Both the position numbers and the translations under genes were made by a program. From contig DASTDY010000063.1 in the NCBI GenBank assembly GCA_035710125.1, positions 150,446 through 214,445 on the forward strand: a DNA stretch of 64,000 nucleotides. The letters run 5' to 3'. The DNA comes from Candidatus Saccharimonadales bacterium. GTDB lineage: Bacteria; Patescibacteriota; Saccharimonadia; Saccharimonadales; EFPC-124. Below the pieces are notes generated by a model. That model had not been told where the DNA came from. It was given only the letters and a program-made list of their open reading frames with translations, and ran no database searches. Of this stretch, positions 46,000 through 59,591 are shown piece after piece (the stretch's first letter is position 1; each line of letters starts with the position of its first letter).

Positions 46000-46028
46000 T
46001 TTACTCAACCCTTAATTTGTGCTATAGT
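46000..46028 (+). promoter_or_regulatory. Putative promoter of tRNA-Glu
   Basis: TTTACT, 17 nt (ending in TGC), then TATAGT, 13 nt upstream of the tRNA 5' end. Confidence 0.45.
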
Positions 46029-46041
46029 TTTTATCTGTTAC

Positions 46042-46116
46042 GGCCTCATCGTCTAACGGTTAGGACACCAGGTTTTCATCCTGGCAATCGGAGTTCGATT
46101 CTCCGTGAGGTCACCA
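46042..46116 (+). tRNA. tRNA-Glu (anticodon UUC)
   Basis: Acceptor GGCCUCA/UGAGGUC, anticodon arm CCAGG-UUUUCAU-CCUGG, T-arm CGGAG-UUCGAUU-CUCCG, encoded CCA. Confidence 0.85.
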
Positions 46117-47788
46117 TAAGATCATTTTCTGCTTTCAGCACCTGAAAGACCGGAGACACCCCTGTAAAAAGGGGTGTTTTTGGTGTTCCAGGTTTTATTT
46201 CTTCGTATGTTGGCAAACGGTCAAATAACGCACCGAAAAGCTGGGCTTTTTTGACTGGATCAATCTGTTTTATGAGTAGTTCATCGAGGTGTTCCAGGAA
46301 ATATCGTACCTTAGCGAGAATCTTGTTAATATCGGTTGGTTTTTCTGCCTCTTTCTTAGCTTTAAGTGCTTGCAAGTCTTTGATTTGTTGTTCAATACGA
46401 ATGATATCCTCCTCAATGAATTTGATGACCGTGATGGACTCTACGGCGCGCAGTTTGGCGACATTAGCTCGCACATCCTTTTGTAGCTCGGCCATGCGTT
46501 CGTCAACGCCCTGGATTTCTTGTATGTAGCTTTGGTTATGCATATTCCACTCCGCGGCAATCGCGTTCATGACTGTATCGATCCGTTCATTCGAGACAGT
46601 TAAGTTACTAATAAATGCTCTCACAGTGTCCTCCAATTCCTGTTTTGGTACGCGATAATAGTGGCCGTGGTTGCTGCAATGATAGGCTGGATAGCGTTTG
46701 CCGGATTTGCCACGTGAGGCGCTGCCAAGCATCGGCCGTTTACATTCGGAACATAGTACGAAGCGGCGATATGGAAAATCTTCGTTTCGTGAACCTTTGT
46801 TGATCAAATGCTCGGCCGGACGTTTAGTAAGGATCTGTATGTCGCCGTCTTTATCCTCAATGATAAACTTCTTGCCTTGCATGGCCCGGTTCCATAAGTC
46901 GATAGAAACGAGACCCTTAAAGGCACATCGTACAGGCTTTCCCTCTGTCCACTTCTCAGCATTCACGCCCGCATAAATCGGGTTAGCAATGAGTTTTTGC
47001 ATGGCTTTTACAGTTAAGGGATTGCCGCCGGTTTTAGAGATAATCTTAGTGCGGTCATTCTTGTCGCGCTTGTACTGTACGCGAGTGCGGAAGCCAAGTT
47101 CGTTTATTTTATCGACAATCTCGGAGTCGTGCATGGCACCTTTGGCGCGTAATTCTAGCATCATGCGGAGGTATTTGGCTTCGGTAGGGTGCGGTTTGAG
47201 AACGCAACGCTTGCCATTTTTAGTCTCCACCTTCTCGCTCGTCAGGCCATAGGGTGCGCGGCGCATCCAGTAGCCCATTCGAGCGTAGCGTATTTCTGCT
47301 CCGATCATACGACTCATGATGTCGCGTAGCTCGTCCTTTGCCCGTTCGGCTTCTAGAATCTCAGTCTTTTTGCTGGGCGAAAATTTGCTCCAATCGTACT
47401 CAACGCCGAGGTGCTCCAGCGTATTAATTTCCTCGCCGCTGATAATCCCATAGACATCAATCAAGCCAACATTACATTCTTTAAGTTGGTTTTTGAGCGG
47501 GCTGTAAAAGTCAGAGCCGCCGCGAGTGAAGCGGTCAATAGATTTGATAATAAATAAATCGATTTCGTTTTTTGGGTCTTTGCAGTAATCGATAGCTGGC
47601 TGCATCGGCTGCTGTTCTTGAGAGGCCGACTCCAGAAATACAAAGTACTGTTTAACGGTTATGCCGCGTGAAGCCGCGAAACGCTCAATTTGCTCGCGCT
47701 GTGCTTCGGGTGAATCTCCGTCCGTACCTTGCTTGGTGGTCGATACACGGATAGCGGCAACGGCGTTCTTGTTAGCATGCGGTGACAT
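46076..47788 (-). CDS. Large serine recombinase (integrase) 1
   Basis: Resolvase domain AAIRVSTTKQ...SIDRFTRG, a recombinase domain, zinc ribbon CSECKRP...YHCSNHGHYY, and a long coiled coil. The last 13 codons (MVTSRRIELRLPG) are antisense to tRNA-Glu. Confidence 0.85.
   Translation of the reverse strand: MSPHANKNAVAAIRVSTTKQGTDGDSPEAQREQIERFAASRGITVKQYFVFLESASQEQQPMQPAIDYCKDPKNEIDLFIIKSIDRFTRGGSDFYSPLKNQLKECNVGLIDVYGIISGEEINTLEHLGVEYDWSKFSPSKKTEILEAERAKDELRDIMSRMIGAEIRYARMGYWMRRAPYGLTSEKVETKNGKRCVLKPHPTEAKYLRMMLELRAKGAMHDSEIVDKINELGFRTRVQYKRDKNDRTKIISKTGGNPLTVKAMQKLIANPIYAGVNAEKWTEGKPVRCAFKGLVSIDLWNRAMQGKKFIIEDKDGDIQILTKRPAEHLINKGSRNEDFPYRRFVLCSECKRPMLGSASRGKSGKRYPAYHCSNHGHYYRVPKQELEDTVRAFISNLTVSNERIDTVMNAIAAEWNMHNQSYIQEIQGVDERMAELQKDVRANVAKLRAVESITVIKFIEEDIIRIEQQIKDLQALKAKKEAEKPTDINKILAKVRYFLEHLDELLIKQIDPVKKAQLFGALFDRLPTYEEIKPGTPKTPLFTGVSPVFQVLKAENDLMVTSRRIELRLPG
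46156..46181 (+). terminator. Rho-independent terminator of tRNA-Glu, lying inside the recombinase ORF on the other strand
   Basis: ACACCCCT-GTAAAA-AGGGGTGT followed by TTTTT. Confidence 0.7.
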
Positions 47789-47791
47789 GAT

Positions 47792-47926
47792 TTAAGCTTT
47801 CGTTTCTTCCTCGATGATAATTTGCAAGATCAAATCAGCTATCAGTTCAACACGCCGTTCTTCTGGCATAGTCACCGTTTCCGGCAGCTTTATTTCTTTA
47901 TTTTGTGAGCCTTTTGTTCTTGCCAT
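47792..47926 (-). CDS. Small ORF (44 aa) directly upstream of recombinase 1; possible accessory/directionality factor
   Basis: Below the ORF-track size cutoff. Manual translation: MARTKGSQNKEIKLPETVTMPEERRVELIADLILQIIIEEETKA. GAGGG RBS. The stop is 3 nt before the recombinase ATG. Confidence 0.3.
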   Translation of the reverse strand: MARTKGSQNKEIKLPETVTMPEERRVELIADLILQIIIEEETKA

Positions 47927-47939
47927 TTTACCCTCGTAG

Positions 47940-47958
47940 CACTTACAATATGTAATAC
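47940..47958. promoter_or_regulatory. Operator-like inverted repeat, copy 1 (CACTTACA-ATA-TGTAATA)
   Basis: Shares 15 fixed positions with 56945..56963. Lies 14 nt upstream of the small ORF/recombinase operon. Confidence 0.5.
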
Positions 47959-47966
47959 CCTAACTA

Positions 47967-47981
47967 TAACAAATTGTAATA
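47967..47981. promoter_or_regulatory. Operator-like inverted repeat, copy 2 (TAACA-AAT-TGTAATA)
   Basis: One mismatch to the TTACA-N3-TGTAATA core. Lies 24 nt from copy 1. Confidence 0.4.
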
Positions 47982-48158
47982 TCTATGACAATAGAAAATG
48001 TAAACATCGCTGTTAAACCTTTAACCTTAATCTCACCCCTCATATATTCTCTTTATATTTTTCCTCTCTTAATATATAAATATATAGAAGATAAGACACA
48101 TAGAATCATTAGAGCATTTAATTGTAAGACAGCAAAAGAAGCTTATAGGTAAATAGAT

Positions 48159-48977
48159 ATGGATAAGACTGAATCTAAAACTAGAAGAAAATTAAATGCA
48201 GAACAATTAGAAGTCTTAGAGCTTCTATATAAATTTAGATTTGGTAGTAATGATCTAATTGCTCAGTATTTTGGTAAGAAGAATCGGTCGTTTGTGTTTA
48301 AGCGGCTATCGATACTGTTAGAGCAAGAACTTATTGGTAAGCGTTTTAATAGTAGCTATCGTATTAAAGGTAAGCCAGCTGCATATTACTTGTTGCCTGC
48401 CGGTGCTCGCAAGCTCCAAGAAACCCGTACCGCAGAAGACGAAGCAGTAAACATCAAAAGCATCTACAAAGACAGAACCGTATCAGAAACATTCATCCAG
48501 CATTCATTGAATATCTTTACTGCGTATAACCAGCTAAAGGCACGATACGGAGATGAGCTAGCATTCTTCACTAAAACTAATCTAACAAGCTACGAGCACT
48601 TTCCTAAGCCATTACCCGATGCGTTTGTATCACTTGAAATCAAGAACACTACCCATTACTTCTTCATAGAGATAGTGGAAGATACCCAACCATTCTTTAC
48701 AGTGGTAAGAAGCATCAAGAAATATCTCGATCACAAAGAAAGTGGCGAATGGGCTATAACCGAAACGGACTATCCGGCTGTCTTATTTATTTGTGAGTCA
48801 ACGAGTCTGCAAAAGAGACTACAGAAGCAAATCACCAAGATGCTGGATACATCATGGGTAGATGATCTAAACTTTGCTACAACCACTAAATCCGAACTTA
48901 CGTCTCTTGTCGAAAATGATGCCATTTGGCAGAAAGTAACCGAGCCAGACGATAAGCTCCCTTTACAAGACACCTAG
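48159..48977 (+). CDS. Replication-relaxation family protein
   Basis: LNAEQLEVLELLYKFRFGSNDLIAQYF...FVFKRLSILLEQELIGKRF...KPAAYYLLPAGARKL follows the winged-helix N-terminal pattern of the Replic_Relax family. Confidence 0.5.
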   Translation: MDKTESKTRRKLNAEQLEVLELLYKFRFGSNDLIAQYFGKKNRSFVFKRLSILLEQELIGKRFNSSYRIKGKPAAYYLLPAGARKLQETRTAEDEAVNIKSIYKDRTVSETFIQHSLNIFTAYNQLKARYGDELAFFTKTNLTSYEHFPKPLPDAFVSLEIKNTTHYFFIEIVEDTQPFFTVVRSIKKYLDHKESGEWAITETDYPAVLFICESTSLQKRLQKQITKMLDTSWVDDLNFATTTKSELTSLVENDAIWQKVTEPDDKLPLQDT

Positions 48978-49128
48978 AACTTGTCACTTGCTTGCAAGTG
49001 GGAAGTCCCTGTTTGTATATTACAAACAGGTTAACTCAGCCCTACTAAGCTACAATTAACCTTGGGAGAGCGAGTCCTTACTCCAACTAGGCTTTGTCGA
49101 GCGTCCTGCTGTTACCTCGACACAGACG

Positions 49129-49491
49129 CTATTTCGGCTGCCAAAGTTGCACTAAGTTGCCTTCTGGATCTACCAACGAGGCAAAGATACCATTTGGATA
49201 CTCTTCAGGATCCCGCTTTACTTCAATGCCGCCATCTGTTAATTGAACAATCATTGCGTCCAAATCGTCCACCCGAAAATTAAGTGCCCATGTTTTGCCG
49301 CTACCGTTAAAATGCTCACTGTCGGCACTCATAAAAGCAAAAACTGTAGGCCCCTGCTTTGGTACCCATTCGGGATCTTCGTACGATGCTGGTGGTAGAG
49401 GTACCCCTAGGTACTTCTGATACCACTCACCTAACATTTCTGGATTCTGTGCGACGATAAATACACCGCCTATACCGTTGATTTTCTGCAT
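49129..49491 (-). CDS. VOC (glyoxalase/bleomycin-resistance) family protein
   Basis: INGIGGVFIVAQNPEMLGEWYQKYLGV ... FASLVDPEGNLVQLWQP. Confidence 0.65.
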   Translation of the reverse strand: MQKINGIGGVFIVAQNPEMLGEWYQKYLGVPLPPASYEDPEWVPKQGPTVFAFMSADSEHFNGSGKTWALNFRVDDLDAMIVQLTDGGIEVKRDPEEYPNGIFASLVDPEGNLVQLWQPK

Positions 49492-49659
49492 ATGTTTATT
49501 GTAGCAGTAGACAACGAGATCGGAGTGGAGAGGTCTATTCCAACTTTTTGACGAAGATATATAAATCTAATGTCTATAAAACCACCATCTTTGAGACACC
49601 TAAAAAGAGAATCTTCATCAGTCCCGCCGCTATGTCTCTAGATCAGTTATACTAGGCGT

Positions 49660-50277
49660 ATGAGTGATCTATATTTCATCGGTGGAGCTCCGCGAACCGG
49701 AAAAACTACCGTGGTCCAAAAACTTCTAAAACAAAAACCAATTCTAGCAGCTTCAACAGATGCTATTCGCGCGGTTGCCCTGGGACTTGTTTCCAAAGAG
49801 ACAGACCCTCATTTGCATCGTGTTGAGCGCGGCCCTTTTGGGTCAGAGGAACACCTGTCCAATTTGAAGAGTAACCAGGAGCTACTTTTGAAGCAAGAGC
49901 TTGCGTCAGCTGAAGCAACTTGGAAGTCGGTCTTAGATTTTGTTGGCTACTACCAAAAGGACGCTAAAGATGCACTCGTGGAGGGTGTTGCAGTATTGCC
50001 AAGTGAGCTTGCAAAAGTAAATTTTGACTTCAAGGCAGTTTTTATCGTCAACCTAACAGATCAAACGGAAGAGATTCTGAGCCACGCACGAGAAAATTCG
50101 TTCGACTGGCTATCAAAGTATGATGATGAAACGATTCGCCAATACGCCACCTTTAATTATCGGTGGAATCAATACTACGCCGAAGAGGCTGTAAAGTACG
50201 GGTTCCATGTTGTCGAGATTGAACCTAAGAACTTTCATCAGAGTGTAGATACGGCTGTTGAGCTTCTAAGCGCTTGA
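49660..50277 (+). CDS. P-loop kinase-like protein
   Basis: Walker A GGAPRTGKTT at the N-terminus. Size and layout of small-molecule/nucleotide kinases. Confidence 0.5.
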   Translation: MSDLYFIGGAPRTGKTTVVQKLLKQKPILAASTDAIRAVALGLVSKETDPHLHRVERGPFGSEEHLSNLKSNQELLLKQELASAEATWKSVLDFVGYYQKDAKDALVEGVAVLPSELAKVNFDFKAVFIVNLTDQTEEILSHARENSFDWLSKYDDETIRQYATFNYRWNQYYAEEAVKYGFHVVEIEPKNFHQSVDTAVELLSA

Positions 50278-50648
50278 TTCCTGATTTCACAACCTTGTCA
50301 ACGGCCTTAGATAACATAAGTTAAATCATGCCCCACAGTTTAAGCGCAAAAGCTTCGACAGCGTATTGTCTCAAAAACCTTCATTTTAGACACGCTATTA
50401 TTGCGTTTTGAAACATGATTTATACCTAGTTTTATGCATATCGTAGTCTTTTGTATCTGTAATAATCTCATGGCTGAAGACTTTGCCAACACGTGCAACA
50501 CAGACGGCAGCTTTAAAACCCAGTCAGCAACCACGTTCACTCCAAGGACGACCCCCTAAGGACTTTATCTACAAGGTTTCCAGAGCGAGATAGGTTAGTA
50601 CGGTAGTATAATAAGATAAAGCAGCTGAGAGAGCAGCGAAAGGAAAAT

Positions 50649-51068
50649 ATGGCACTAGAAGTAAATTGGCTAGCAGTAGCAATAGCCACTATTGTTGGAA
50701 CGGCGATTGCTGGAATATGGTATCAGGAGCCAGTCTTTGGTAAAGCATGGCGAAAGGCCACTGGGGTAACACCGAAACAGTCAAAGCAGGCAGGCAATGC
50801 TCCGATGGTTGTTCTGTTGATTGCAAACTCCGTAACTGCAGTCGGCTTGGCAAGCTTAGTCTATCTAACTTCCCACTTCTTTGAAAATTATACAGTTGGG
50901 TTTGCTCTGCTGAATGGAGCAGTCGCAGGACTGGCGCTATCGGCAACCACTCTTGTCGTGCATAATGGCTTTGAGCTAAAACCTAAGAGGTTAACGCTGA
51001 TCAATGTTGCTTATCAAATGGTAATCTTTTTAAGCATGACGCTTGTCATTGGCTTGTTTGGCGCGTGA
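50649..51068 (+). CDS. DUF1761 family membrane protein
   Basis: NWLAVAIATIVGTAIAGIWYQEPVFGKAWRKATG plus three further TM helices. RBS AAAGGA. Confidence 0.55.
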   Translation: MALEVNWLAVAIATIVGTAIAGIWYQEPVFGKAWRKATGVTPKQSKQAGNAPMVVLLIANSVTAVGLASLVYLTSHFFENYTVGFALLNGAVAGLALSATTLVVHNGFELKPKRLTLINVAYQMVIFLSMTLVIGLFGA

Positions 51069-51078
51069 TCAAAATTTA

Positions 51079-51909
51079 ATGCACATTTTCACCACATCCC
51101 AAGGCACCCTTGAATACCGAATAGTCGGTAACGGCAATAAGACGGCTATTATCTTCCCTGGCGGTCACATGGACGCGAGCGTGAACTTAGGTGAAGACTT
51201 TTTTATCAAAAGGGGCTACCAGGTGATAACATTGTCACGACCGGGGTATGGAAAAACCTCACTTGCTACTGGACCTTCACCCGATAGCTTTGCAGATACT
51301 GTTGCTCAGCTGCTCGAAAGTCTTAATATCCATAAGATAGTTGCAGTAGGTATTTCGGCCGGAGGGCGCAGTGCAGTTCGTCTGGCTGCAAAGTACCCTA
51401 GAGTAGTAGAAAAACTAATCCTGCAATGTGCCACAAGTTTTATGCCATGGCCCGATGCCCAGACCCGCCGAGTTGCGCGTATTGCGTTTAATCCCTCCAT
51501 GGAGAAGTTCACTTGGCAGATCATGCGAAGAATACTTAAAGCAAGCCCTCGCGCGGGTCTAAAGATGATGCTGGGCAATATGAGTACGCTTAACCCGGAT
51601 GATGTGATAGATAGCTTAAGTAAGGGACAGACAGATGGCCTGATTAATATTTTCGCCCATCTGCAATCTGGCAAGGGTTTTATGAATGATCTGGCGCAAA
51701 CATCAGGCTCGGCAAAAGATGTGCATGTGCCTACATTGATTATTCATAGCAAGTATGACAAAAGCGTTTCGCTAGAGCATGCAAAGAAGCTTCATTCTGA
51801 AATTGCAGGCTCAAGACTTTTTATAACCACAGCAGAAAGCCATATGATTTGGTTTAGTACCCAGTACGATCAAATTCAGAAGGAAATGGGAGCCTTTTTA
51901 GACTTTTAA
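51079..51909 (+). CDS. Alpha/beta hydrolase
   Basis: Nucleophile elbow VGISAGG, C-terminal HSKYD...H. ATG 51079 preferred over the TTG at 51043. Confidence 0.7.
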   Translation: MHIFTTSQGTLEYRIVGNGNKTAIIFPGGHMDASVNLGEDFFIKRGYQVITLSRPGYGKTSLATGPSPDSFADTVAQLLESLNIHKIVAVGISAGGRSAVRLAAKYPRVVEKLILQCATSFMPWPDAQTRRVARIAFNPSMEKFTWQIMRRILKASPRAGLKMMLGNMSTLNPDDVIDSLSKGQTDGLINIFAHLQSGKGFMNDLAQTSGSAKDVHVPTLIIHSKYDKSVSLEHAKKLHSEIAGSRLFITTAESHMIWFSTQYDQIQKEMGAFLDF

Positions 51910-51948
51910 TAAGGTGCCAATCTCGCATGGATACGATATGTGGGACGT

Positions 51949-52683
51949 TCATAACCCGCTCACCACAAGCAATACTCCCACCCCATGCGCTACAACCGCA
52001 GGCCATAAACCATATCGCATCCGCAGGAAAGCACACACCAACCCTTCGTATAAAGTAAAGATAAGCAATGCTATACCTACATCGGTGGCTATGAAGGCTA
52101 AGAATATATGCGCTGCCGCAAAGGTTAGCGCCGAGAGGAGTGCAGCGAGTAACGGTTTGTACAGCTTTTCGAGATAACCTTGTAGATAGCCCCTGAAAAG
52201 CAACTCCTCCATGAAATTCCCTAGTAAGGTTATGGCAAGTAAAGCTGGGAGTAAGCCTAGCGCTACGCTACCGCCGCGTTCTGCCAGCGGAGTAAACTGG
52301 TAAGCAATAAGGAGCGGTGCGGCAACAGCGCCAGCTCCGAGCAAGCCGTATAGCAGGGTCTTAGGCGTAAATTTGCCCCATTTTAGATAGGACTTCATTT
52401 GTTTGTTGGTTGCCAAAACAAGCACGGCAAAAACCAAAGAAGCTAGTCCTAGTGATACAAGAATAAGCGGATCATTAATAAACCGTATCCACAATACTCC
52501 ATTATGAGTGCCCAATTCCCAGAGGTTATGTACGGTCATTGCATCCCGCATGAGCATAAAGGCTAAAATAAGTAGGAATATTCTAAAAGCCATGGCTTGT
52601 TTACCTTTGTAGAGAAAATAGAGGGCCCCAAGCAATAGCAGGCCAGGGAGTATGTGAAGGCTGTAGTCGATAAGCGTAAGCAT
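51949..52683 (-). CDS. CPBP family intramembrane glutamic endopeptidase (CAAX protease / Abi-type)
   Basis: EELLFRGYL and FAAAH motifs in a polytopic membrane protein. A TATAAT box lies in the short upstream gap. Confidence 0.75.
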   Translation of the reverse strand: MLTLIDYSLHILPGLLLLGALYFLYKGKQAMAFRIFLLILAFMLMRDAMTVHNLWELGTHNGVLWIRFINDPLILVSLGLASLVFAVLVLATNKQMKSYLKWGKFTPKTLLYGLLGAGAVAAPLLIAYQFTPLAERGGSVALGLLPALLAITLLGNFMEELLFRGYLQGYLEKLYKPLLAALLSALTFAAAHIFLAFIATDVGIALLIFTLYEGLVCAFLRMRYGLWPAVVAHGVGVLLVVSGL

Positions 52684-52732
52684 TTGTTGCTATTATAGCA
52701 ATCTTTGGGCGTAGCAAGTGGCTAAGGAGAAC

Positions 52733-55375
52733 TTAAGATACCTTACCCTTCTTAGGAAATAAAGGTTTTGCCTGCTTATCTTTTGTTTGGGTTCTCTTTG
52801 CAGGAGTCTTTCGTTTTGCCGCAGCCTTGGCCTTAGGCTCTTTCGCCTTTGTGGCTGGCTCACTCTTTTTAGAGGGGTCAGGAATTTCCTTTGGTCTTAT
52901 ATATTCTTTGCCGTAGTTCTTCTGCGAAGCAGCAACAGCTCGTTTAGCAACGTTCTCGTCGCCCGATCCCTCTAGTACAATTGTCTCGCCCGAAAATGCT
53001 TCCTGTGCATCACCAGCCGCAATACGCATATAGAAGTTATACTTTGGTAAGTGTGTGATCTCACCCTCTTCAATATAACCTTTGAACTGATGGAGCATTA
53101 ATTCCTCGTCGGCTGGATTCCCGGTACGGAAACAAACAATCGTGCCTGCGTTGTCTAGGATATTTTCGGTGAGCTCGCGGTCTTGCTGTGAAGTAGATTG
53201 TTCGGCCATTGTTAGGAATAGCTTATACTTGCGTGATTCTGACAATATTTGCATAAACAGCGGTGATACAAAATTCTGGAATTCATCCACATACAGGTAG
53301 AACGGACGCCGGTCTTCTTCTTTTGTATTGATGCGGCGGTAGGCCGCAAGCTGCAATCTCGTAAGAATAGCAGTGCCGAGCACGGCCGAAGTATCTTCAC
53401 CAATCGAACCCTTAGCTAGGTTACAGATAAGAATCTTGCCATTTAGTATTTCATCGAAGTCGATGGTTGATTTCTCTTGTTCCAAGATGCGTCGTGTCAC
53501 TACGGAACGTTGGAAACGCCCAATCTTGGTAGTGACGCCATCCATGGCTTTATATTTCTGGTAGTTACCTGCCAGGCCAAACTCGTTGATCCAAAAGTCT
53601 TTAATATCTTCATCGTCTAATGTGGCGACAACTTTCTTACGGAATTCTGGATTGTTAAGTAGCTTGCGGATAGTGAAAAGGGTTGCACCTTCGACGGCAA
53701 AAGCAGTGTGTACGGCATTTCGCAAAACGTGCTCAATGCGATGTCCGCCCGAATCATCCTCGGAGAAAATCTTGCGGAAAACGGAGACGATCGACTCCGT
53801 AACGAAGTCCTTCGCAAGTAGTAGCTCATCGCCAGTAAGACCCTCTGGCAATTCAAGTAAGTTCAAGCCAATAGGATTGCTGATGTCTGCCGGATTAAAG
53901 TAAATGACATCCTTCATCCGCTCCTCTGGAATATACTTGAGCAGCTTTGCCGCCATGTCTCCGTGCGGATCGACTACGGCAACGCCCTTGCCGTTCTGTA
54001 TATCTTGCAGGATTGCATATTGCAGTAGCGTTGTTTTGCCATTACCCGTACCACCGATAATGTACATATGACGTTCACGTTCATCTGTGGTCAGGCCAAT
54101 GTTTGTTGTTTCGCCGTGATGGTTATTGTTACCGAGCACTACGTCAAAAGTACTGTCATCAGTACGATTCTTAAGAAGTGTTGGTGCTGGCAGAGTTCGG
54201 CTATGGGAACGAGTCATACCTTCAGTTGTAATTGCGCCATAGGGGAAATGGTAGATACTGGCAAGCTCAGATGCTGCAAGAATATTAGTACCAAACACAA
54301 AGAATGATGGCATACGACGTTCAAGCTTGAACATGCCCATCTTTTGACCCAGCCAATCGGGATGTAGCCGAGGCATGTGTAATTGTTGTGTGCTCACTGA
54401 GTTGAGGGGAGCAAGTGAACTGGTGATACCCGAAGATAAATCATAAAGTCGCGAGTTACTTGCGGCTGAGACCAATATACGGATATCTGTTCTAAAAAGT
54501 GGTTGGTTTAACTTCGCCAGCACACCTGCAAATACTTCTTGTTGTGCCTGGGTAAGCTCGGGTTCATCGCGGCGTATGAATAACGAAACGACAAGCAGTA
54601 CCAATAACAAGGATGCAGTAGCCTTTAGATCATTGGTAAAAAGGCCGTACACAGCAGTGATTAGCCATACCCATATGGGACGGCTTAATATAAAGTATCG
54701 TAACTTACGGTCTAGGACGGCATAGCCAGTACCCTCAATCTTGGCACGCAGCCGGTTAGTCCAGTATGAATGGTGCGGTGCGAGCACGAGCTGCATAGTC
54801 ACCTTCTCATCTGGCTTTAGCTTAGTCATTGCTCCTGTAATAAATGTAACTGGGTCACTTTGATCGAGTGCTTCGTGGGCTTGCAAAGGATAGGCGTAAT
54901 GATAGGCTTGTTTGACTTCAAAGACACGGCTGTGGCTACTACGAGCTTCCCCTGTTGCCGATTCCAATATTCTGAACTGGGCATCGGGCAAGTACGCTGC
55001 TAATTGCCGCTGAAGCGTTTCGGCATCGCCTGGATGTATATGCATAAGGTAGCGAATACCTTCTTTGCGAGTGGCACTAATTTCAAGCGGCGCGACTTCA
55101 TTACGATTGATAAGCTGCCCTATGACCGCGAAAAGCTGCTGCGTAGCAAGCGGTGACTTCTCTATATGCTTAGGCGGTGTGATCTCAAGAATGACGCGTG
55201 GGTGGTTACGCATCTTCCAGAAATTCCACATACCTTTTAGCACGGTATAAGTTGGTTCAAGTATCCAACGGTAAATCAAATACACCACGATGATTAACAA
55301 GGCAACACTAAGAGAACGGTCAAAGAGATTGTGACCCAAGAAATTCAGTGCGTCGTCTAGTGTAAGCATAACCAC
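52733..55375 (-). CDS. Membrane-anchored TraD/VirD4/FtsK-like coupling ATPase
   Basis: TM helix, a ~190-aa domain, two TM helices, then Walker A IIGGTGNGKTT, VVDPHGD, Walker B FYLYVDEFQNF, TMAEQSTSQ. Lys-rich tail. Start is GTG 55375 or ATG 55369. Confidence 0.7.
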   Translation of the reverse strand: MVMLTLDDALNFLGHNLFDRSLSVALLIIVVYLIYRWILEPTYTVLKGMWNFWKMRNHPRVILEITPPKHIEKSPLATQQLFAVIGQLINRNEVAPLEISATRKEGIRYLMHIHPGDAETLQRQLAAYLPDAQFRILESATGEARSSHSRVFEVKQAYHYAYPLQAHEALDQSDPVTFITGAMTKLKPDEKVTMQLVLAPHHSYWTNRLRAKIEGTGYAVLDRKLRYFILSRPIWVWLITAVYGLFTNDLKATASLLLVLLVVSLFIRRDEPELTQAQQEVFAGVLAKLNQPLFRTDIRILVSAASNSRLYDLSSGITSSLAPLNSVSTQQLHMPRLHPDWLGQKMGMFKLERRMPSFFVFGTNILAASELASIYHFPYGAITTEGMTRSHSRTLPAPTLLKNRTDDSTFDVVLGNNNHHGETTNIGLTTDERERHMYIIGGTGNGKTTLLQYAILQDIQNGKGVAVVDPHGDMAAKLLKYIPEERMKDVIYFNPADISNPIGLNLLELPEGLTGDELLLAKDFVTESIVSVFRKIFSEDDSGGHRIEHVLRNAVHTAFAVEGATLFTIRKLLNNPEFRKKVVATLDDEDIKDFWINEFGLAGNYQKYKAMDGVTTKIGRFQRSVVTRRILEQEKSTIDFDEILNGKILICNLAKGSIGEDTSAVLGTAILTRLQLAAYRRINTKEEDRRPFYLYVDEFQNFVSPLFMQILSESRKYKLFLTMAEQSTSQQDRELTENILDNAGTIVCFRTGNPADEELMLHQFKGYIEEGEITHLPKYNFYMRIAAGDAQEAFSGETIVLEGSGDENVAKRAVAASQKNYGKEYIRPKEIPDPSKKSEPATKAKEPKAKAAAKRKTPAKRTQTKDKQAKPLFPKKGKVS

Positions 55376-55432
55376 GTCATAATTCTGTTAATTATACAAA
55401 CTAATATAACTGATGAGCAAACAGAAGGCTAG

Positions 55433-56677
55433 CTACTCAAAGTAGTAAAGGGGTAATATGTATTTCGATCCATCTTGGACTGGGTGTCTATGGTTTGCGC
55501 TAAATCTAGCTAGATATTCGTTGTCTACAAAGTCAATTGCATTCCGAAATATATTACTGCCGCCACGCTCCAGGCCATTAATTGTTTCAGCCATTGATCC
55601 GACTAACTGATTTTGACCTATTGCAAGCACGAGCAGGTGCTCATCTGTGCCTCTTCTAATACTGCGGTTTTGCCGATGTGTGTCATAGTGCGTAAGCAGA
55701 GGATCGGCGCTGTCATGCTTGATATAGCGCCCTGATTCAATAATGAGAACGATACGAGGATCGGGGTTGTAGCCTTTTGCCTGTAGGGATTGATACTTAC
55801 TTTCGCTATTGCGGATGATGAATTTTACATCCCTAAAGCTTAGCTTATGTTTGGCGACTAGTCTCTGAAGCCATTCTGCTAGGTGATCTTTGCTCGTTTG
55901 GCTTGTCGTGAGTTCTTGGGAGAATACTTTCTCAACAAATTTTGTGAAATCTCGTGAATCTAAATCAAAAAATTCTACAAAATCCAAAGCCTTTATGTAA
56001 GAGTCTCGCTGATCTGAAAAAGATTTGCCAGCGATGGGAATAAATACTTTTATTTTATTATCAAACTCCGACGCCCTCAAGAAGTGACTAAGTGTCTCGA
56101 TAAAATATATACCTGCATCCCCGGATCGATCTGCATCTTCTATGACGATGTATATTTGTTTCTGCCTGATATCTTTCTTGGCTAGAACATCTTTAAATAT
56201 GTCCTGAATCTGAAATACGCGTTTAGCCGGGCTTGTAGTGAAGAAATCAGCCAACTTACTAACTATCGCCCCGGATCCCTTGAAAGGTATATTTAACGCA
56301 GCGCCAGCGGCTTTAGTGAGCTTCTTTTTAACATCTCCAGACGTACCGTCCATAATCTTTAACGTTTTTGCAAAATCTTTTGGCGCAACTTGCCGCACAA
56401 AATCCAAAACAAACCCTTCCCATAGATTTGTTCGCTCAGGATACTTCCAAGCATCAAAATGTGCCCATATAACATCATCGTTATCGAGTTTGCTGTGTAC
56501 CTTCTCGAGCAATGTACTTTTACCCATGCCGTAGTTACCTACGATGCCCAAGAGGGATTTATTGGAAATTGTTTCGATTTTGCTCTTTAGGCTATCTACA
56601 TGAACGTCAAAAGAAAAAAGATCCTCTGTTTTATAGTCTTCGACCAAAAACAGGGGGTCATTTATCATTGTTGCCAT
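55433..56677 (-). CDS. KAP-family P-loop NTPase without an obvious transmembrane insert
   Basis: Walker A GNYGMGKST, then FDAWKYPERTNLWEGF (KAP signature), Walker B IYIVIEDADRS. The ATG lies 5 nt after the XRE stop, with AAGGA inside the XRE 3' end. Confidence 0.6.
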   Translation of the reverse strand: MATMINDPLFLVEDYKTEDLFSFDVHVDSLKSKIETISNKSLLGIVGNYGMGKSTLLEKVHSKLDNDDVIWAHFDAWKYPERTNLWEGFVLDFVRQVAPKDFAKTLKIMDGTSGDVKKKLTKAAGAALNIPFKGSGAIVSKLADFFTTSPAKRVFQIQDIFKDVLAKKDIRQKQIYIVIEDADRSGDAGIYFIETLSHFLRASEFDNKIKVFIPIAGKSFSDQRDSYIKALDFVEFFDLDSRDFTKFVEKVFSQELTTSQTSKDHLAEWLQRLVAKHKLSFRDVKFIIRNSESKYQSLQAKGYNPDPRIVLIIESGRYIKHDSADPLLTHYDTHRQNRSIRRGTDEHLLVLAIGQNQLVGSMAETINGLERGGSNIFRNAIDFVDNEYLARFSANHRHPVQDGSKYILPLYYFE

Positions 56678-56682
56678 GTCGC

Positions 56683-56910
56683 CTAAAGTCCTTTGAAAAA
56701 CTCGACTACCGTCACATCAAGACACTTCGCTAACTTCTGTAGAGTAGCAAGTCGCGGCCAGCGTCGGCCTTGTTCGATAAAACCAATAGATAGCGGTGTA
56801 ATATCCGCCTTTGCTGCAAGTTGTTCTTGTGTATAGCCACGCTGACGTCGAACATCTGCGACGCGTTTGCCGAAGGCTTTCAGGTATTTGGATTCTTTTG
56901 GATCATTCAT
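56683..56910 (-). CDS. XRE-family HTH transcriptional regulator
   Basis: FGKRVADVRRQRGYTQEQLAAKADITPLSIGFIEQGRRWPRLATLQKLAKCL. I prefer ATG 56910 (MNDPKES). Confidence 0.8.
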   Translation of the reverse strand: MNDPKESKYLKAFGKRVADVRRQRGYTQEQLAAKADITPLSIGFIEQGRRWPRLATLQKLAKCLDVTVVEFFKGL

Positions 56911-56944
56911 TACTTCCAGAGTAAAGAAATATGACAACTCGTAA

Positions 56945-56963
56945 CACTTACAGATTGTAATAT
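56945..56963. promoter_or_regulatory. Operator-like inverted repeat, copy 3 (CACTTACA-GAT-TGTAATA)
   Basis: Lies in the divergent region between the XRE gene and 57025..57465. Matches copy 1. Confidence 0.5.
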
Positions 56964-56999
56964 GTGGCAAAGTGTCCTATTCTAGAACAGATACAACTA

Positions 57000-57015
57000 T
57001 TACAGAGCGTAATAC
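57000..57015. promoter_or_regulatory. Operator-like inverted repeat, copy 4 (TTACA-GAG-CGTAATA)
   Basis: One mismatch to the core. Lies 52 nt from copy 3. Confidence 0.4.
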
Positions 57016-57024
57016 AGATAAAAT

Positions 57025-57465
57025 ATGCACGAACTGAAAATTTTATATCATTCACCGAGAGTTAGCTTGTCTCGCGACTTAGCCGAGCAGATATGCGAAA
57101 GTAGCATGCAGAGTAAGGTGGCTATCGTGACGAGCAGGCCAATAGTACTACTTTCTGCTACAAGAAAACAGTGGCTAAAACTAATACGTCGCGCACAGCG
57201 CGAGCGTTCAAGTACGTTGAATGCCTTAAAGATTGCCAGCTTGACTCAGCAAATAGCCTGGATGCAATCGTTACGCTTTACCGCGACAGCGCCGGACGAT
57301 CTATTGGAAGCTGATGTGACCTTCGCAACTGCCGAAGATTCCGTGCATATACCGCCGGTGTGCAGAACGATTTATGTGACTTATGGATTTGAAAAAGAAA
57401 AGCTGCACATGCTCACGAGTTGGATGCCGAAGGGTGGACTGGTGGTGATGTATGGACAGAAGTAG
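57025..57465 (+). CDS. Hypothetical protein (146 aa)
   Basis: No motif recognised. Overlaps the RadC-like gene by 14 nt. Confidence 0.45.
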   Translation: MHELKILYHSPRVSLSRDLAEQICESSMQSKVAIVTSRPIVLLSATRKQWLKLIRRAQRERSSTLNALKIASLTQQIAWMQSLRFTATAPDDLLEADVTFATAEDSVHIPPVCRTIYVTYGFEKEKLHMLTSWMPKGGLVVMYGQK

Positions 57466-57835
57466 GCCCCTACTTACTACCGAAGCTGCACTGGCGCATG
57501 TCATGTTTATTCGCAACAAGCGGCAGGAATATTTTGTGTGCCTTTCGCTGGATAGTGGCCGCAGATTGATTGCACGGCGCACTGTAACGATCGGCTTATT
57601 GGATATGTCACTGGTACATCCGCGTGAAGTGTTTGCAGGGCCGCTTAAAGATCGAGCTGCTACGGTCATCATTGCTCACAATCATCCTTCGGGCATTGCG
57701 GAGCCAAGTAGACAGGATATTAAAGCAACGCAGCAACTCATCGCCGCAGGTCAGCTGCTCGGTATACCGCTTTCCGATCATATTATCATTACCAAAGATC
57801 GACATTACAGCTTCAGAGAGAGCGGCCTCATCTAG
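57452..57835 (+). CDS. RadC-like JAB/MPN domain protein
   Basis: HPREVFAGPLKDRAATVIIAHNHPSGIAEPSRQDIKATQQL (JAMM motif HxHPSG..PSxxD). Lacks the N-terminal HhH part of full RadC. Confidence 0.8.
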   Translation: MDRSRPLLTTEAALAHVMFIRNKRQEYFVCLSLDSGRRLIARRTVTIGLLDMSLVHPREVFAGPLKDRAATVIIAHNHPSGIAEPSRQDIKATQQLIAAGQLLGIPLSDHIIITKDRHYSFRESGLI

Positions 57836-57888
57836 TAGTAAAACGATGTAAAACATCGCATGATAGCTCTGTTAAATAAGGAGATATC

Positions 57889-59310
57889 ATGCAAGCACAA
57901 CCAAAAGCAGTCATCTTTGCCCGTGTATCGAGCAAAGCACAGGAGGACGAGGGATATTCACTCGACTCACAACTCAAACTTTTACGGGCTTACTGCAAGA
58001 AGAGACGGCTCGATGTCGTTAAGGAGTTCAAGATTGCGGAAACCGCCTCAAAGACGCAGCGCCGTACCGAGTTCCGCGCATTGCTGACGTATATTACAAA
58101 GAATAGGATTCACCACTTTGCTGTAGAGAAAACAGACAGGGCTGCGCGGAATATTAAGGACGCATCCGATATCTACGATTGGATCGAAGGTGACGAAAAG
58201 CGCGTCTTTCACTCGGTTAAAGAAGGGCTGGAGTTGCACAAATGGTCAACCTCACAAGTAAAATTCATGTGGGGCATTTTTGTAGCGTTCGCCAAGCAGT
58301 ATACCGATAGCCTCCGCGAAGAAGCGATGAAGGGCTGGTACGAAAAGTTAGCACAAGGTTGGCTGCCAGCTCCGCCTCCTCCGGGATACAAAACAATTAC
58401 GGAGTACGGTAAGAAAATTCATGTGCCCGATACGGACATTGTTCATAGCATGGTGCACATCTTTCAGCTCGCAAGCTTGCCCGACTATAACGTGAGGCGA
58501 GTAACTGAAGTCTTGGCCGAGCTGGGCGTTACGAGCCGCAAAGGACGGCCATATTCTAAAAGCTATGTCCACAAGACACTGACGAACCCTTTTTATATCG
58601 GCATTAACCGTTTTAATGGCAAGGATTATCCAGGCGCGCAGGAACCGATTATCAGCAAAGAGCTGTTTTATGAGGTGCAAGAAAAGCTCCGTAGACCTCG
58701 TAATGGGCCCGGCAAAAAACACAATCCGGTTTTCAAAGGTATGATCCACTGCACTGATTGTGGCTCAATGGCAACCTGGCAACAACAGAAAGGTCGTTAC
58801 TACGGTGCTTGCCAACGTACAAGCGAGGCATGTCGACGTAAGCCGCTTCTCCGTGGAGATCGTGTCGAATCACAAGTAATCGAAAAACTGGAGGCGATTA
58901 AAGATCGTGGTGGCAAGCTTTTTGATGAGCTTAAGGTTGCCCTGAATCTGGAGCACTCTGCATATATCGGTATGCATCGTAACCAAGTGATGAAGTCTTT
59001 GAAAAGTCAGCTAAGGAGGCTTCAAGTCATGGAAGATGCGTTGTATGAAGATAAGCTAGCGGGCGTGATATCGGACGGTCGATATCAGTCCAAGCGTGCA
59101 GATTTCGCCGATCAAGCTGAGCAAATAATGGCCCGCTTATCGAAGCTCGATGAGATTCAGGCCGAGCGGGATGTTGAGCTCCCGGGTGTAAAGAACAAAA
59201 TTGTAGCGCTCTATCTAAAAAGCACGCCTGGCCAGAAACGTACTATCTTGAGTACTGTGTTTAAGAAAATGATTCTGAGTGGCGGTTTATTAGTGATTGA
59301 GCGAACGTAG
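57889..59310 (+). CDS. Large serine recombinase 2
   Basis: AVIFARVSSKAQ...VEKTDRAARN resolvase domain, a recombinase domain, zinc ribbon CTDCGS...YYGACQ, and a coiled coil. Confidence 0.85.
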   Translation: MQAQPKAVIFARVSSKAQEDEGYSLDSQLKLLRAYCKKRRLDVVKEFKIAETASKTQRRTEFRALLTYITKNRIHHFAVEKTDRAARNIKDASDIYDWIEGDEKRVFHSVKEGLELHKWSTSQVKFMWGIFVAFAKQYTDSLREEAMKGWYEKLAQGWLPAPPPPGYKTITEYGKKIHVPDTDIVHSMVHIFQLASLPDYNVRRVTEVLAELGVTSRKGRPYSKSYVHKTLTNPFYIGINRFNGKDYPGAQEPIISKELFYEVQEKLRRPRNGPGKKHNPVFKGMIHCTDCGSMATWQQQKGRYYGACQRTSEACRRKPLLRGDRVESQVIEKLEAIKDRGGKLFDELKVALNLEHSAYIGMHRNQVMKSLKSQLRRLQVMEDALYEDKLAGVISDGRYQSKRADFADQAEQIMARLSKLDEIQAERDVELPGVKNKIVALYLKSTPGQKRTILSTVFKKMILSGGLLVIERT

Positions 59311-59311
59311 C

Positions 59312-59512
59312 CTACGACTCACGTTCCTTCTGGAATGCTTCGTACAATTCGTCCAGTGCGTTAGGATCAGTAAGAGCTAACCGGCGAGACGCTGCTTTGA
59401 GATATCTAAGCATCTCTTCTGCAAACTCGCGGTTGGCATTTTCCGGATGGAATGATTTTAGGTATCTCAGCATTCCCTGTATATCTTCTTCTGTGATTTC
59501 GTAGCCACTCAT
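59312..59512 (-). CDS. Small hypothetical protein with internal MLRYLK duplication
   Basis: 66 aa with AAGGA RBS. Convergent with recombinase 2 and divergent from the OLD-family gene. Confidence 0.5.
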   Translation of the reverse strand: MSGYEITEEDIQGMLRYLKSFHPENANREFAEEMLRYLKAASRRLALTDPNALDELYEAFQKERES

Positions 59513-59591
59513 AATTCTTCCTTAGTATAGCACCGCTATATTGCTATTAGCTCCCATAGATGTCAATAAGGACATTCCTGCTACAATCGAT

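Follow-up and report, generated by a model that had tools for sequence, protein, structure and literature searches.

A stretch of 64,000 nucleotides from a Candidatus Saccharimonadales bacterium (assembly GCA_035710125.1, contig DASTDY010000063.1, positions 150,446 to 214,445; hereafter the window) contains, as judged from its gene content, a conserved mobilizable element integrated at a tRNA gene. In the orientation of the window, the element is composed of the tRNA gene, the large serine recombinase gene rec1, a small open reading frame (ORF), a first control region (region 1), a relaxase gene, variable cargo, a coupling-protein gene, a variable slot, the gene of a small XRE-family helix-turn-helix (HTH) protein, a second control region (region 2) and the genes hyp146, RadC and rec2, followed again by variable cargo (Table 1). 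Both control regions carry copies of a 17-bp palindrome with the consensus TATTACA-N3-TGTAATA (read on the minus strand), and the XRE protein of the element is probably the regulator which the two regions share.

Table 1. Features of the element and its control regions, in positions of the window; palindromic sites are listed as putative operators.
Feature	Position	Strand	Sequence	Remarks
tRNA-Glu(ttc)	46042..46116	+		left integration junction; overlapped by last 41 bp of rec1
rec1, large serine recombinase, 570 aa	46076..47788	-		Pfam Resolvase, 35.9 bits
44-aa ORF	47792..47926	-	MARTKGSQNK...EERRVELIADLILQIIIEEETKA	first gene of the putative rec1 operon; no known domain
Site R1-A	47941..47957		ACTTACAATATGTAATA	14 bp upstream of 44-aa ORF ATG; over predicted transcription start and leader
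Predicted sigma-70-type promoter of the 44-aa ORF-rec1 operon	47963..47991	-	TTGTCA, 17 nt, TATAGT	TG upstream of -10
Site R1-B	47965..47981		TATAACAAATTGTAATA	between -35 and -10, overlapping -10
Relaxase-proximal block of region 1	48003..48097	.	TAATATATAAATATATAGAAGATAAGAC	also holds short hairpin (TTCAAC-N6-GTTGAA in relatives)
Replic_Relax protein (relaxase)	48159..48977	+		PF13814, 49.9 bits (cut-off 25.3)
Type IV coupling-protein-like ATPase	52733..55375	-		TrwB_AAD_bind, TraG-D_C, DUF87; last gene of the putative XRE operon
KAP-family P-loop nucleoside triphosphatase (NTPase)	55433..56677	-		variable cargo slot directly downstream of XRE
XRE-family HTH protein, 75 aa	56683..56910	-		HTH_3 (PF01381); proposed repressor
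Site R2-C	56930..56946		TATGACAACTCGTAACA	3 mismatches in the window (degenerate); abuts R2-A
Site R2-A	56946..56962		ACTTACAGATTGTAATA	conserved in all F1 relatives
Site R2-B	56998..57014		TATTACAGAGCGTAATA	10 bp upstream of hyp146 ATG
Divergent operon from region 2 (putative)	57025..59310	+		hyp146 57025-57465; RadC-like JAB 57452-57835; rec2 57889-59310

Palindromic sites in the two control regions

Within the 64 kb of the window, four sites match the consensus with at most two mismatches, and all of them lie in the control regions (R1-A and R1-B in region 1, R2-A and R2-B in region 2). A scan for TTACA-N3-TGTAATA with at most one mismatch gives six strand-hits, which correspond to the same four places, as compared to 0.41 expected, and six hits were reached in none of 100 shuffles. 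Likewise, first-order Markov resampling of both AT-rich intergenic regions yields a mean of 0.041 sites against the four observed, with a probability of 5.5e-4 of finding at least one site in each region. A first-pass annotation, made from the letters of the window alone, had reported four such sequences, two in each region, as a shared operator. All four are present, and the second copies TAACAAATTGTAATA (47967-47981) and TTACAGAGCGTAATA (57000-57014) are borne out; the two 18-mers had been given end coordinates one base too long and in fact span 47940-47957 (CACTTACAATATGTAATA) and 56945-56962 (CACTTACAGATTGTAATA). Two sites are also what is found in region 1, with a distance of 24 bp from centre to centre, whereas region 2 has a third one, R2-C. 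From the centre of this site it is 16 bp to the centre of R2-A and 28 bp to the ATG of the XRE gene. Its counterpart is a good palindrome (TTACAAnTTGTAA) in the related loci L083, L087 and L169, and L090 has a near-palindrome there. Taken as a pair, sites C and A have the layout TTACA-N3-TGTAA-GTG-TTACA-N3-TGTAA, an arrangement that is conserved in all relatives belonging to the same class as the window (termed F1 in the following).

By comparing 15 non-redundant F1-class loci it is evident that the sites are specific to the control regions: 40 sites, 21 of them exact, are found within 3.1 kb of control regions, as compared to 10 sites, none of them exact, in the 295 kb of the same loci outside these regions, so that site density is about 380-fold higher inside. 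The first-pass annotation had named abundance of the motif in AT-rich intergenic DNA as an observation that would undo its proposal, and this is not what is seen: only three of the 10 outside sites were found in the 27.9 kb of other DNA having a G + C content of 36% or less. In the nine distinct region-2 sequences of the F1 class, three blocks are conserved, and these coincide exactly with sites C, A and B. The 25-35 nt separating A from B vary, as do the three central nucleotides of each site; R2-B, for instance, differs between the window, L081 and L082 in its central bases only. The nine distinct F1 region-1 sequences have both sites as well as the flanking promoter hexamers conserved, R1-A being a perfect palindrome (TATTACATATTGTAATA) in L083. 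By the measure of sequence conservation, the sites are thus phylogenetic footprints in both regions.

In region 1, the predicted promoter reads towards the 44-aa ORF and rec1, scores 10 of 12 matches in the promoter scan and has both of its hexamers conserved in the F1 relatives. R1-B fills the promoter spacer and R1-A follows just downstream, with a GAGGG ribosome-binding site and then the ATG of the 44-aa ORF beyond it. The left arm of R1-B, TATAACA, departs from the consensus because it doubles as the extended -10 element (TGTTATAGT on the minus strand). Read from the sequence, this would be the classic layout of a repressor, with the operon of the 44-aa ORF and rec1 as its target. The 44-aa ORF, homologues of which are called as genes in the relatives and show 44-93% identity in tblastn, had been missed between rec1 and region 1 by the first-pass annotation, the gene context of which is in other respects confirmed by Pfam.

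That annotation had also argued that a single repressor controls both recombination/replication modules. Support for this was obtained for the rec1 operon, but not for the replication-relaxation gene, as the region-1 sites are placed at the leftward promoter, with some 180 bp between them and the start of the relaxase gene, which lies behind a separately conserved upstream block of its own. This relaxase-proximal block is present upstream of the relaxase in most of the loci L092-L160, whatever their operator class, and its TATATAAATATA core is kept even where the identity of the relaxases is only 36-45%; it is a candidate for the relaxase promoter or for an origin of transfer (oriT). In L172 (16807-17838) and L173 (9144-10175), a transposase of the IS1595 family is inserted in region 1, where it sits between the operator pair and the relaxase-proximal block and leaves the F1 sites intact beside the small ORF.

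Putative operator classes and the XRE protein

In four relatives (L099, L100, L106 and L154) the XRE protein is 60-64% identical to that of the window, and region 2 is homologous, yet the sites are different. The palindrome of this second class (F2) is CTATTA-N7-TAATAG, which occurs in both regions. At the position of R2-A the change from ACTTACA-GAT-TGTAATA in F1 to ACTTAGT-ACT-ACTAATA in F2 (ACTTAGTACTACTAATA) is symmetric in both arms, and site B in F2 reads CTATTAG-N5-(A/G)TAATA(G/C). In region 1 of L100, L106 and L154, two CTATTA-N7-TAATAG sites are found at the same promoter positions as in F1, the equivalent promoter in F2 relatives, as read by eye, being TTGTTA-17-TAGAAT. Regions 1 and 2 of the F2 class also have 10-mers in common, e.g., AAACTATTAG. 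In concert with the operators, the recognition helix of the XRE protein changes consistently from T[PA]LS[IL]..IEQGRRWPR in F1 to TALTV[AS]YIEQGRQWPR in F2. A third class is represented by L096, where an XRE protein with 51% identity and a different helix has TAGACT-N3-AGTCTA upstream of its gene; in this locus (870-953) the XRE gene lies beside RadC, and the dyad TAGACT-TAT-AGTCTA is accompanied by a second, similar one.

Wherever the class of both the XRE protein and region 1 is known to be F1 or F2, the two agree (nine of nine elements, none mixed). Six elements are concordant for F1 (the window, L083, L087 together with L163, L164, L172 and L175) and three for F2 (L100, L106 and L154), which in our own calculation gives p = 1/84 by Fisher's exact test for nine elements that are not fully independent lineages. 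The genes in between do not follow this pattern. The coupling-protein gene is unlinked from the class, with a same-class nearest neighbour in three of 13 cases and identities of 67.5% within and 68.5% between classes, and the relaxase is mostly unlinked (15 of 26 nearest neighbours in the same class): the relaxase of L092 is 85% identical to that of the window and yet stands beside F2 sites, whereas the one of L172, at 24% identity, stands beside F1 sites. Since the intervening genes are shuffled relative to class, the match between regions 1 and 2 is not a matter of simple linkage.

A number of observations weigh against the XRE protein as the shared regulator, or at least limit its reach. 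The three F2 elements are closely related, and the rec1 genes of class F2 fall into a single clade, with 84-95% identity between nearest neighbours. The rec1 gene goes with the operator cassette beside it in 20 of 21 cases, so that part of the linkage could be due to co-adaptation between rec1 and rec2 or hyp146. F1 and F2 operators share the outer bases TATTA..TAATA, and the classes are therefore related and not wholly different. L090, with an F1 XRE, and L099, with an F2 XRE, have a region 1 with a different palindrome and no XRE-type sites, and L156 has an F1 XRE but a short region 1 without any sites; the coupling between XRE and region 1 is therefore common, but neither obligatory nor universal. 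Finally, the promoter scan of region 2 gave no consensus promoter, so that the placement of the sites relative to promoters in this region is our own reading, and the hexamers assigned by hand to hyp146, TTGTAA-17-TATTCT, match at only eight of 12 positions and are offered with the same caution.

The different palindrome of L090 and L099 belongs to an alternative rec1 module (L090 19544-19794, L099 9413-10000; also in L095, L107, L108, L113 and L138), the recombinase of which is about 22% identical to rec1. The palindrome has arms of 17-21 bp (ACATTATATGGATAGTA/TACTATCCATATAATGT) and is found with either XRE class, and the module is suggestive of an independent local control system. In L090 the alternative rec1 is preceded by a 107-aa ORF, which was checked as a possible local repressor and has no recognisable domain.

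The F2 elements further have a region 2 of about 410 bp (L100 19853-20264, L106 12106-12518, L154 17729-18141), where an extra small Cys-rich ORF of about 85 aa was read by eye in the interval between the operator sites and hyp146.

Candidate regulators and alternative readings

The XRE protein is the only protein encoded beside the control regions that has a recognised sequence-specific DNA-binding domain. Its HTH_3 match (residues 19-71) reaches 57.0 bits and is above the curated cut-off of 23, and its closest solved relatives include C.AhdI, C.BclI, C.Esp1396I, DdrO, ImmR of ICEBs1 and SinR, which are small dimeric operator-binding repressors. The sites in the window have the dyad geometry that would be expected for a dimeric binder of the XRE family. 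In L169-L171, an F1-type XRE gene with sites C and A is found amid genes for a metal-ATPase (upstream) and for HNH, methylase and PycTM proteins (downstream), the other genes of the element being absent; in addition, L164 lacks hyp146 and rec2, L166 lacks hyp146 and RadC, and both retain the sites. The XRE gene with its upstream sites is thus the smallest unit travelling together, and XRE is the only gene that always accompanies the sites. The view of the first-pass annotation that XRE is the most likely binder of the shared operator accordingly gains support from the footprints, the concerted switch of class, the agreement of classes in all nine elements and the company that XRE keeps with the sites, all of which are features of sequence.

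It is unlikely, although this is the strongest of the alternatives, that the sites are real shared binding sites of another protein, be it hyp146, the 44-aa protein, a recombinase acting via accessory sites or a host factor. The identity of hyp146 falls with class (83, 68 and 57% in F1 loci as compared to 49-54% in F2), and rec1 tracks its operator cassette as described above, both of which speak for this reading. However, sites C and A stay beside XRE in loci that lack hyp146, RadC, rec2, rec1 or the coupling protein (L169-L171, L164 and L166). The predicted structure of the 146-aa protein hyp146, with a pLDDT (predicted local distance difference test) value of 85.5, is an alpha/beta domain weakly similar to the RecA-like domains of helicases, with neither an HTH nor a ribbon-helix-helix fold, so that hyp146, predicted to be without a DNA-binding fold and absent from loci retaining the sites, is not supported as the binder. 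The 44-aa protein was rejected because its MARxKGS-type homologues are found with F1 sites, with the unrelated palindrome GATAGTATACTATC and with no sites at all and it therefore cannot set the specificity, and region-2 sites also exist in L090, where the 107-aa ORF replaces it. For the relaxase, the phylogeny is shuffled relative to operator class (L092, L172), which led to its rejection. A host factor, in turn, would not explain why the class of the motif follows the recognition helix of XRE.

Less probable still is that the similarity of the two regions merely reflects common descent or exchange of a promoter cassette, with the arms serving as -10-like (TGTAAT) and -35-like (TTACA) elements and no trans-acting regulator in common. 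In line with such an origin, the sequence identity of the two regions runs past the dyad (CTCGTA[G/A]CACTTACA), TGTAAT matches five of the six positions of the -10 consensus, the site arms coincide with predicted promoter hexamers, and modules of the element have clearly been exchanged by recombination. Arms separated by 3 nt cannot, however, make a -35/-10 pair, and dyad symmetry around a fixed 3-nt centre is kept in five sites, the centres and flanks of which vary. The symmetric change of both arms in F2 is the signature of a dimeric binder and not of RNA polymerase, and descent alone leaves unexplained why the regions match in XRE class across shuffled genes.

Transfer origins commonly contain inverted repeats, and serine recombinases cut with a 2-nt stagger at the dyad centre. 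The palindromes adjoin the recombinase operons, and those of region 1 are within about 200 bp of the gene for a MOBC-type relaxase; they might hence serve the two serine recombinases as sites of recombination or as accessory sites, or form part of a transfer origin. We consider this very improbable, as with an odd number of central nucleotides (3 nt) the axis of the dyad falls on a base, which does not fit the 2-nt stagger, the junction of the element is located at the tRNA gene, 1.8 kb from the sites, and C and A accompany XRE where recombinase and relaxase are absent. The sites are also shuffled relative to the relaxase, with which the relaxase-proximal block is conserved, making the latter the better candidate for an oriT. 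That the palindromes act as RNA, in the form of leader hairpins or a known RNA element, is hardly credible even though R2-A, R2-C and R1-A are probably located in 5' leaders, since the folding energies are no better than those of shuffled sequences (z = -1.1, -0.2 and 0.0), hairpins with a stem of five A/U-rich pairs and a loop of 3 nt are marginal, the tRNA is the only match in Rfam, and R1-B lies upstream of the predicted transcription start.

In the mechanism favoured here, the sites would be operators for dimers of the 75-aa XRE protein. Bound in region 1 at R1-B (spacer and -10) and R1-A (start), the protein would repress the operon of the 44-aa ORF and rec1. In region 2, binding at C and A would autoregulate its own operon, which comprises XRE, a variable cargo gene and the coupling protein, and, together with dyad B just upstream of hyp146, would control the divergent hyp146-RadC-rec2 operon. 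One protein could in this way couple the expression of both recombinases and of the coupling protein of a tRNA-integrated mobilizable element. Binding by XRE, repression at region 1 and the sign of regulation at region 2 are what we infer from the arrangement of sites and genes.

The putative mobile element and its known counterparts

The gene order outlined above is found again on at least 11 distinct contigs, all spanning both control regions, which were fetched via XRE and relaxase homologues, and this bears out the earlier claim that both halves belong to one element. In the window, the 3' end of rec1 is antisense to the 3' part of the tRNA gene, and in most relatives checked a tRNA gene likewise overlaps or adjoins the rec1 3' end, although the tRNA varies (Glu, Phe, Arg, Gln or Gly; L093, L104, L145, L100, L106, L154, L163, L172, L101, L111, L117, L156, L164, L142, L098, L099 and L095). 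Members of the family therefore use the 3' ends of different tRNA genes for integration, and the coding sequence for the recombinase C-terminus extends across the junction. Between 40000 and 64000, a repeat of the tRNA 3' end of at least 16 nt, as expected for a right attachment site (attR), was not found, and the right end was not located.

Of the two recombinases, rec2 is a large serine recombinase passing the Pfam cut-offs for Resolvase, Recombinase and Zn_ribbon_recom; the Recombinase and Zn_ribbon_recom matches of rec1 are just under theirs. The coupling protein matches TrwB_AAD_bind with 30.8 bits (cut-off 20.5) and TraG-D_C with 25.6 bits (cut-off 22), and its homologues are recorded with DUF8128 and type IV coupling-protein domains. 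No VirB4 or other type IV secretion system gene was detected in the ORF and Pfam content between 46 and 59.3 kb. A small ORF of 66-84 aa with sub-threshold Pfam hits only is convergent to the rec2 3' end, which it nearly touches, in the window (59312-59512, minus strand), L083 (7328-7582) and L087 (7324-7551).

The gene position immediately downstream of XRE is a hot-swappable slot. It is occupied by the KAP NTPase in the window and L081, by Mrr in L087 (10233-11051), by a 296-aa protein without known identity in L090 (10228-11118) and by an HNH nuclease in L169 (10230-11030), and it is empty in L082 (1020-1140). Cargo in general varies from locus to locus and is often related to defence, as observed at the window, L083, L087, L088, L163, L164, L175 and L169. 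An OLD-family ATPase with a UvrD helicase (Gabija-like) is present in the window (59541-63783) and in L083 (3111-7266), and the defence-type cargo of the relatives includes HamA with a helicase (Hachiman-like), Mrr with a methylase and a ResIII helicase, KwaA/KwaB, DruA, SduA, PycTM and reverse transcriptase.

Megablast of positions 46000-59400 against Escherichia coli genomes and PLSDB plasmids gave no match, and a scan of genome contigs with XRE, which is a short and generic query, returned only relatives from unrelated phyla with identities of at most 49-53%. No description of this element or of its regulation was found in the literature search. A survey of Patescibacteria reported 58 homologues of MOBC relaxases and, for 39 relaxase genes, a gene for a coupling protein nearby; neither this element nor its pair of large serine recombinases, its tRNA junction or its regulation is covered there (PMC12102498). 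The relaxase family PF13814 has been classed as MOBC (PMC5357655), and streptococcal integrative and mobilizable elements have been described that combine an integrase with a non-canonical relaxase and a coupling protein but do not encode a complete type IV secretion system (PMC5357655). The element in the window resembles such elements in having its own recombinases, a PF13814 relaxase and a coupling protein but no complete mating-pore apparatus. As to its ends, a left junction at the tRNA 3' end is conserved across relatives having different tRNAs.

In operator layout, the closest resemblance is to the controller (C) proteins of restriction-modification systems such as C.PvuII, C.AhdI and C.Esp1396I, which are small HTH proteins of the XRE family of about 75-80 aa. 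Just upstream of their own gene they likewise carry a pair of neighbouring dyads, each with a 3-nt centre; the C-boxes are arranged as GACT-N3-AGTC-N4-GACT-N3-AGTC with a conserved central GT (PMC2175313). Common to both systems are also a regulator co-transcribed with a potentially toxic downstream gene (here Mrr in L087, HNH in L169 and the KAP NTPase in the window) and an operator class that tracks the recognition helix, and TAGACT-N3-AGTCTA of L096 contains the C-box consensus GACT-N3-AGTC. If XRE behaved in an analogous way, it could activate region 2 when scarce and repress it when abundant. In contrast to C proteins, the half-site in the window is TTACA and not GACT, the centres are spaced by 16 bp and not 15 bp, and the downstream genes are those of the KAP NTPase and the coupling protein and not a restriction-modification pair (the slot of L169 has HNH with a methylase). 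Moreover, the proposed regulon reaches a further promoter, 9 kb distant, which drives expression of a recombinase, and the sequence similarity of C proteins to XRE is only generic (E ~1e-5 to 1e-3).

In its way of working, the system may be compared to the immunity repressors of mobile elements. ImmR of ICEBs1 and cI-like repressors, e.g., of TnSmu1, are XRE-type repressors encoded by integrated transferable elements, and ImmR-type repressors act at a divergent promoter region to keep recombination and transfer genes off (PMC8960796). Here, too, the XRE gene is divergent from hyp146-RadC-rec2 and sites are located at the rec1 promoter, from which a similar control may be presumed, and the DNA-binding domain of ImmR (7t8i) is among the solved relatives named above. 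ImmR has 127 residues, the C-terminal part of which is cleaved by the adjacent metallopeptidase ImmA (PMC8960796), whereas XRE, with 75 residues, is nearly all HTH domain and without a C-terminal extension, and no ImmA-like (COG2856) domain was found in the genes neighbouring XRE. Also unlike ImmR elements, which have one tyrosine integrase and Xis, the present element has two serine recombinases at opposite ends.

Repressors of the lambda and 434 type (cI/Cro) have 17-bp pseudo-palindromic operators in tandem, about 24 bp apart from centre to centre, which overlap promoter hexamers; in lambda, OL and OR are kilobases apart and served by one repressor, and there are discrete immunity classes, from one to the next of which repressor and operators change jointly. 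Operator length, tandem spacing, promoter overlap, distant operator regions and matched classes are thus alike, while neither phage genes nor a second, Cro-like regulator are present here. By analogy, the system would therefore work like a mobile-element immunity repressor (ImmR, phage cI), with the operator layout of restriction-modification controllers. It belongs to neither the C-protein nor the ImmR family, as C-box half-sites, a regulated restriction gene, the ImmR extension and an ImmA partner are all absent.

A more far-reaching proposal, which is possible but which we regard as rather doubtful, is that the pairs of XRE protein and operator represent separate classes of immunity or compatibility (F1, F2 and one or more others) within an undescribed family of tRNA-integrating elements with two serine recombinases that would carry much of the anti-phage cargo of Saccharibacteria. 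One 75-aa repressor would then synchronise both recombinases and the coupling protein, so that excision and transfer proceed as a unit, and selection for matched repressor and operators would hold the ends of the element together while the interior is freely exchanged; the divergent RadC-like JAB protein might be an anti-repressor.

Gene regulation and mobile elements of Saccharibacteria and other Patescibacteria are little known, as these bacteria are hard to grow and have become genetically tractable only recently. That one repressor has matching operators at two promoters of a mobile element is conceptually standard biology, which in this case is unusually well supported by related elements. 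The proposed regulon of a 75-aa repressor, five operator sites and three target operons is concrete and testable, and the F1 and F2 classes constitute a natural specificity swap with a built-in control. Being conserved while carrying different defence cargo in different relatives (Gabija-like, Hachiman-like, Kiwa, Druantia, Shedu, Mrr or restriction-modification genes), the element could explain the movement of such cargo among these bacteria, and its repressor-operator pairs, together with the two serine recombinases, are candidate parts of genetic tools for Saccharibacteria and other Patescibacteria.

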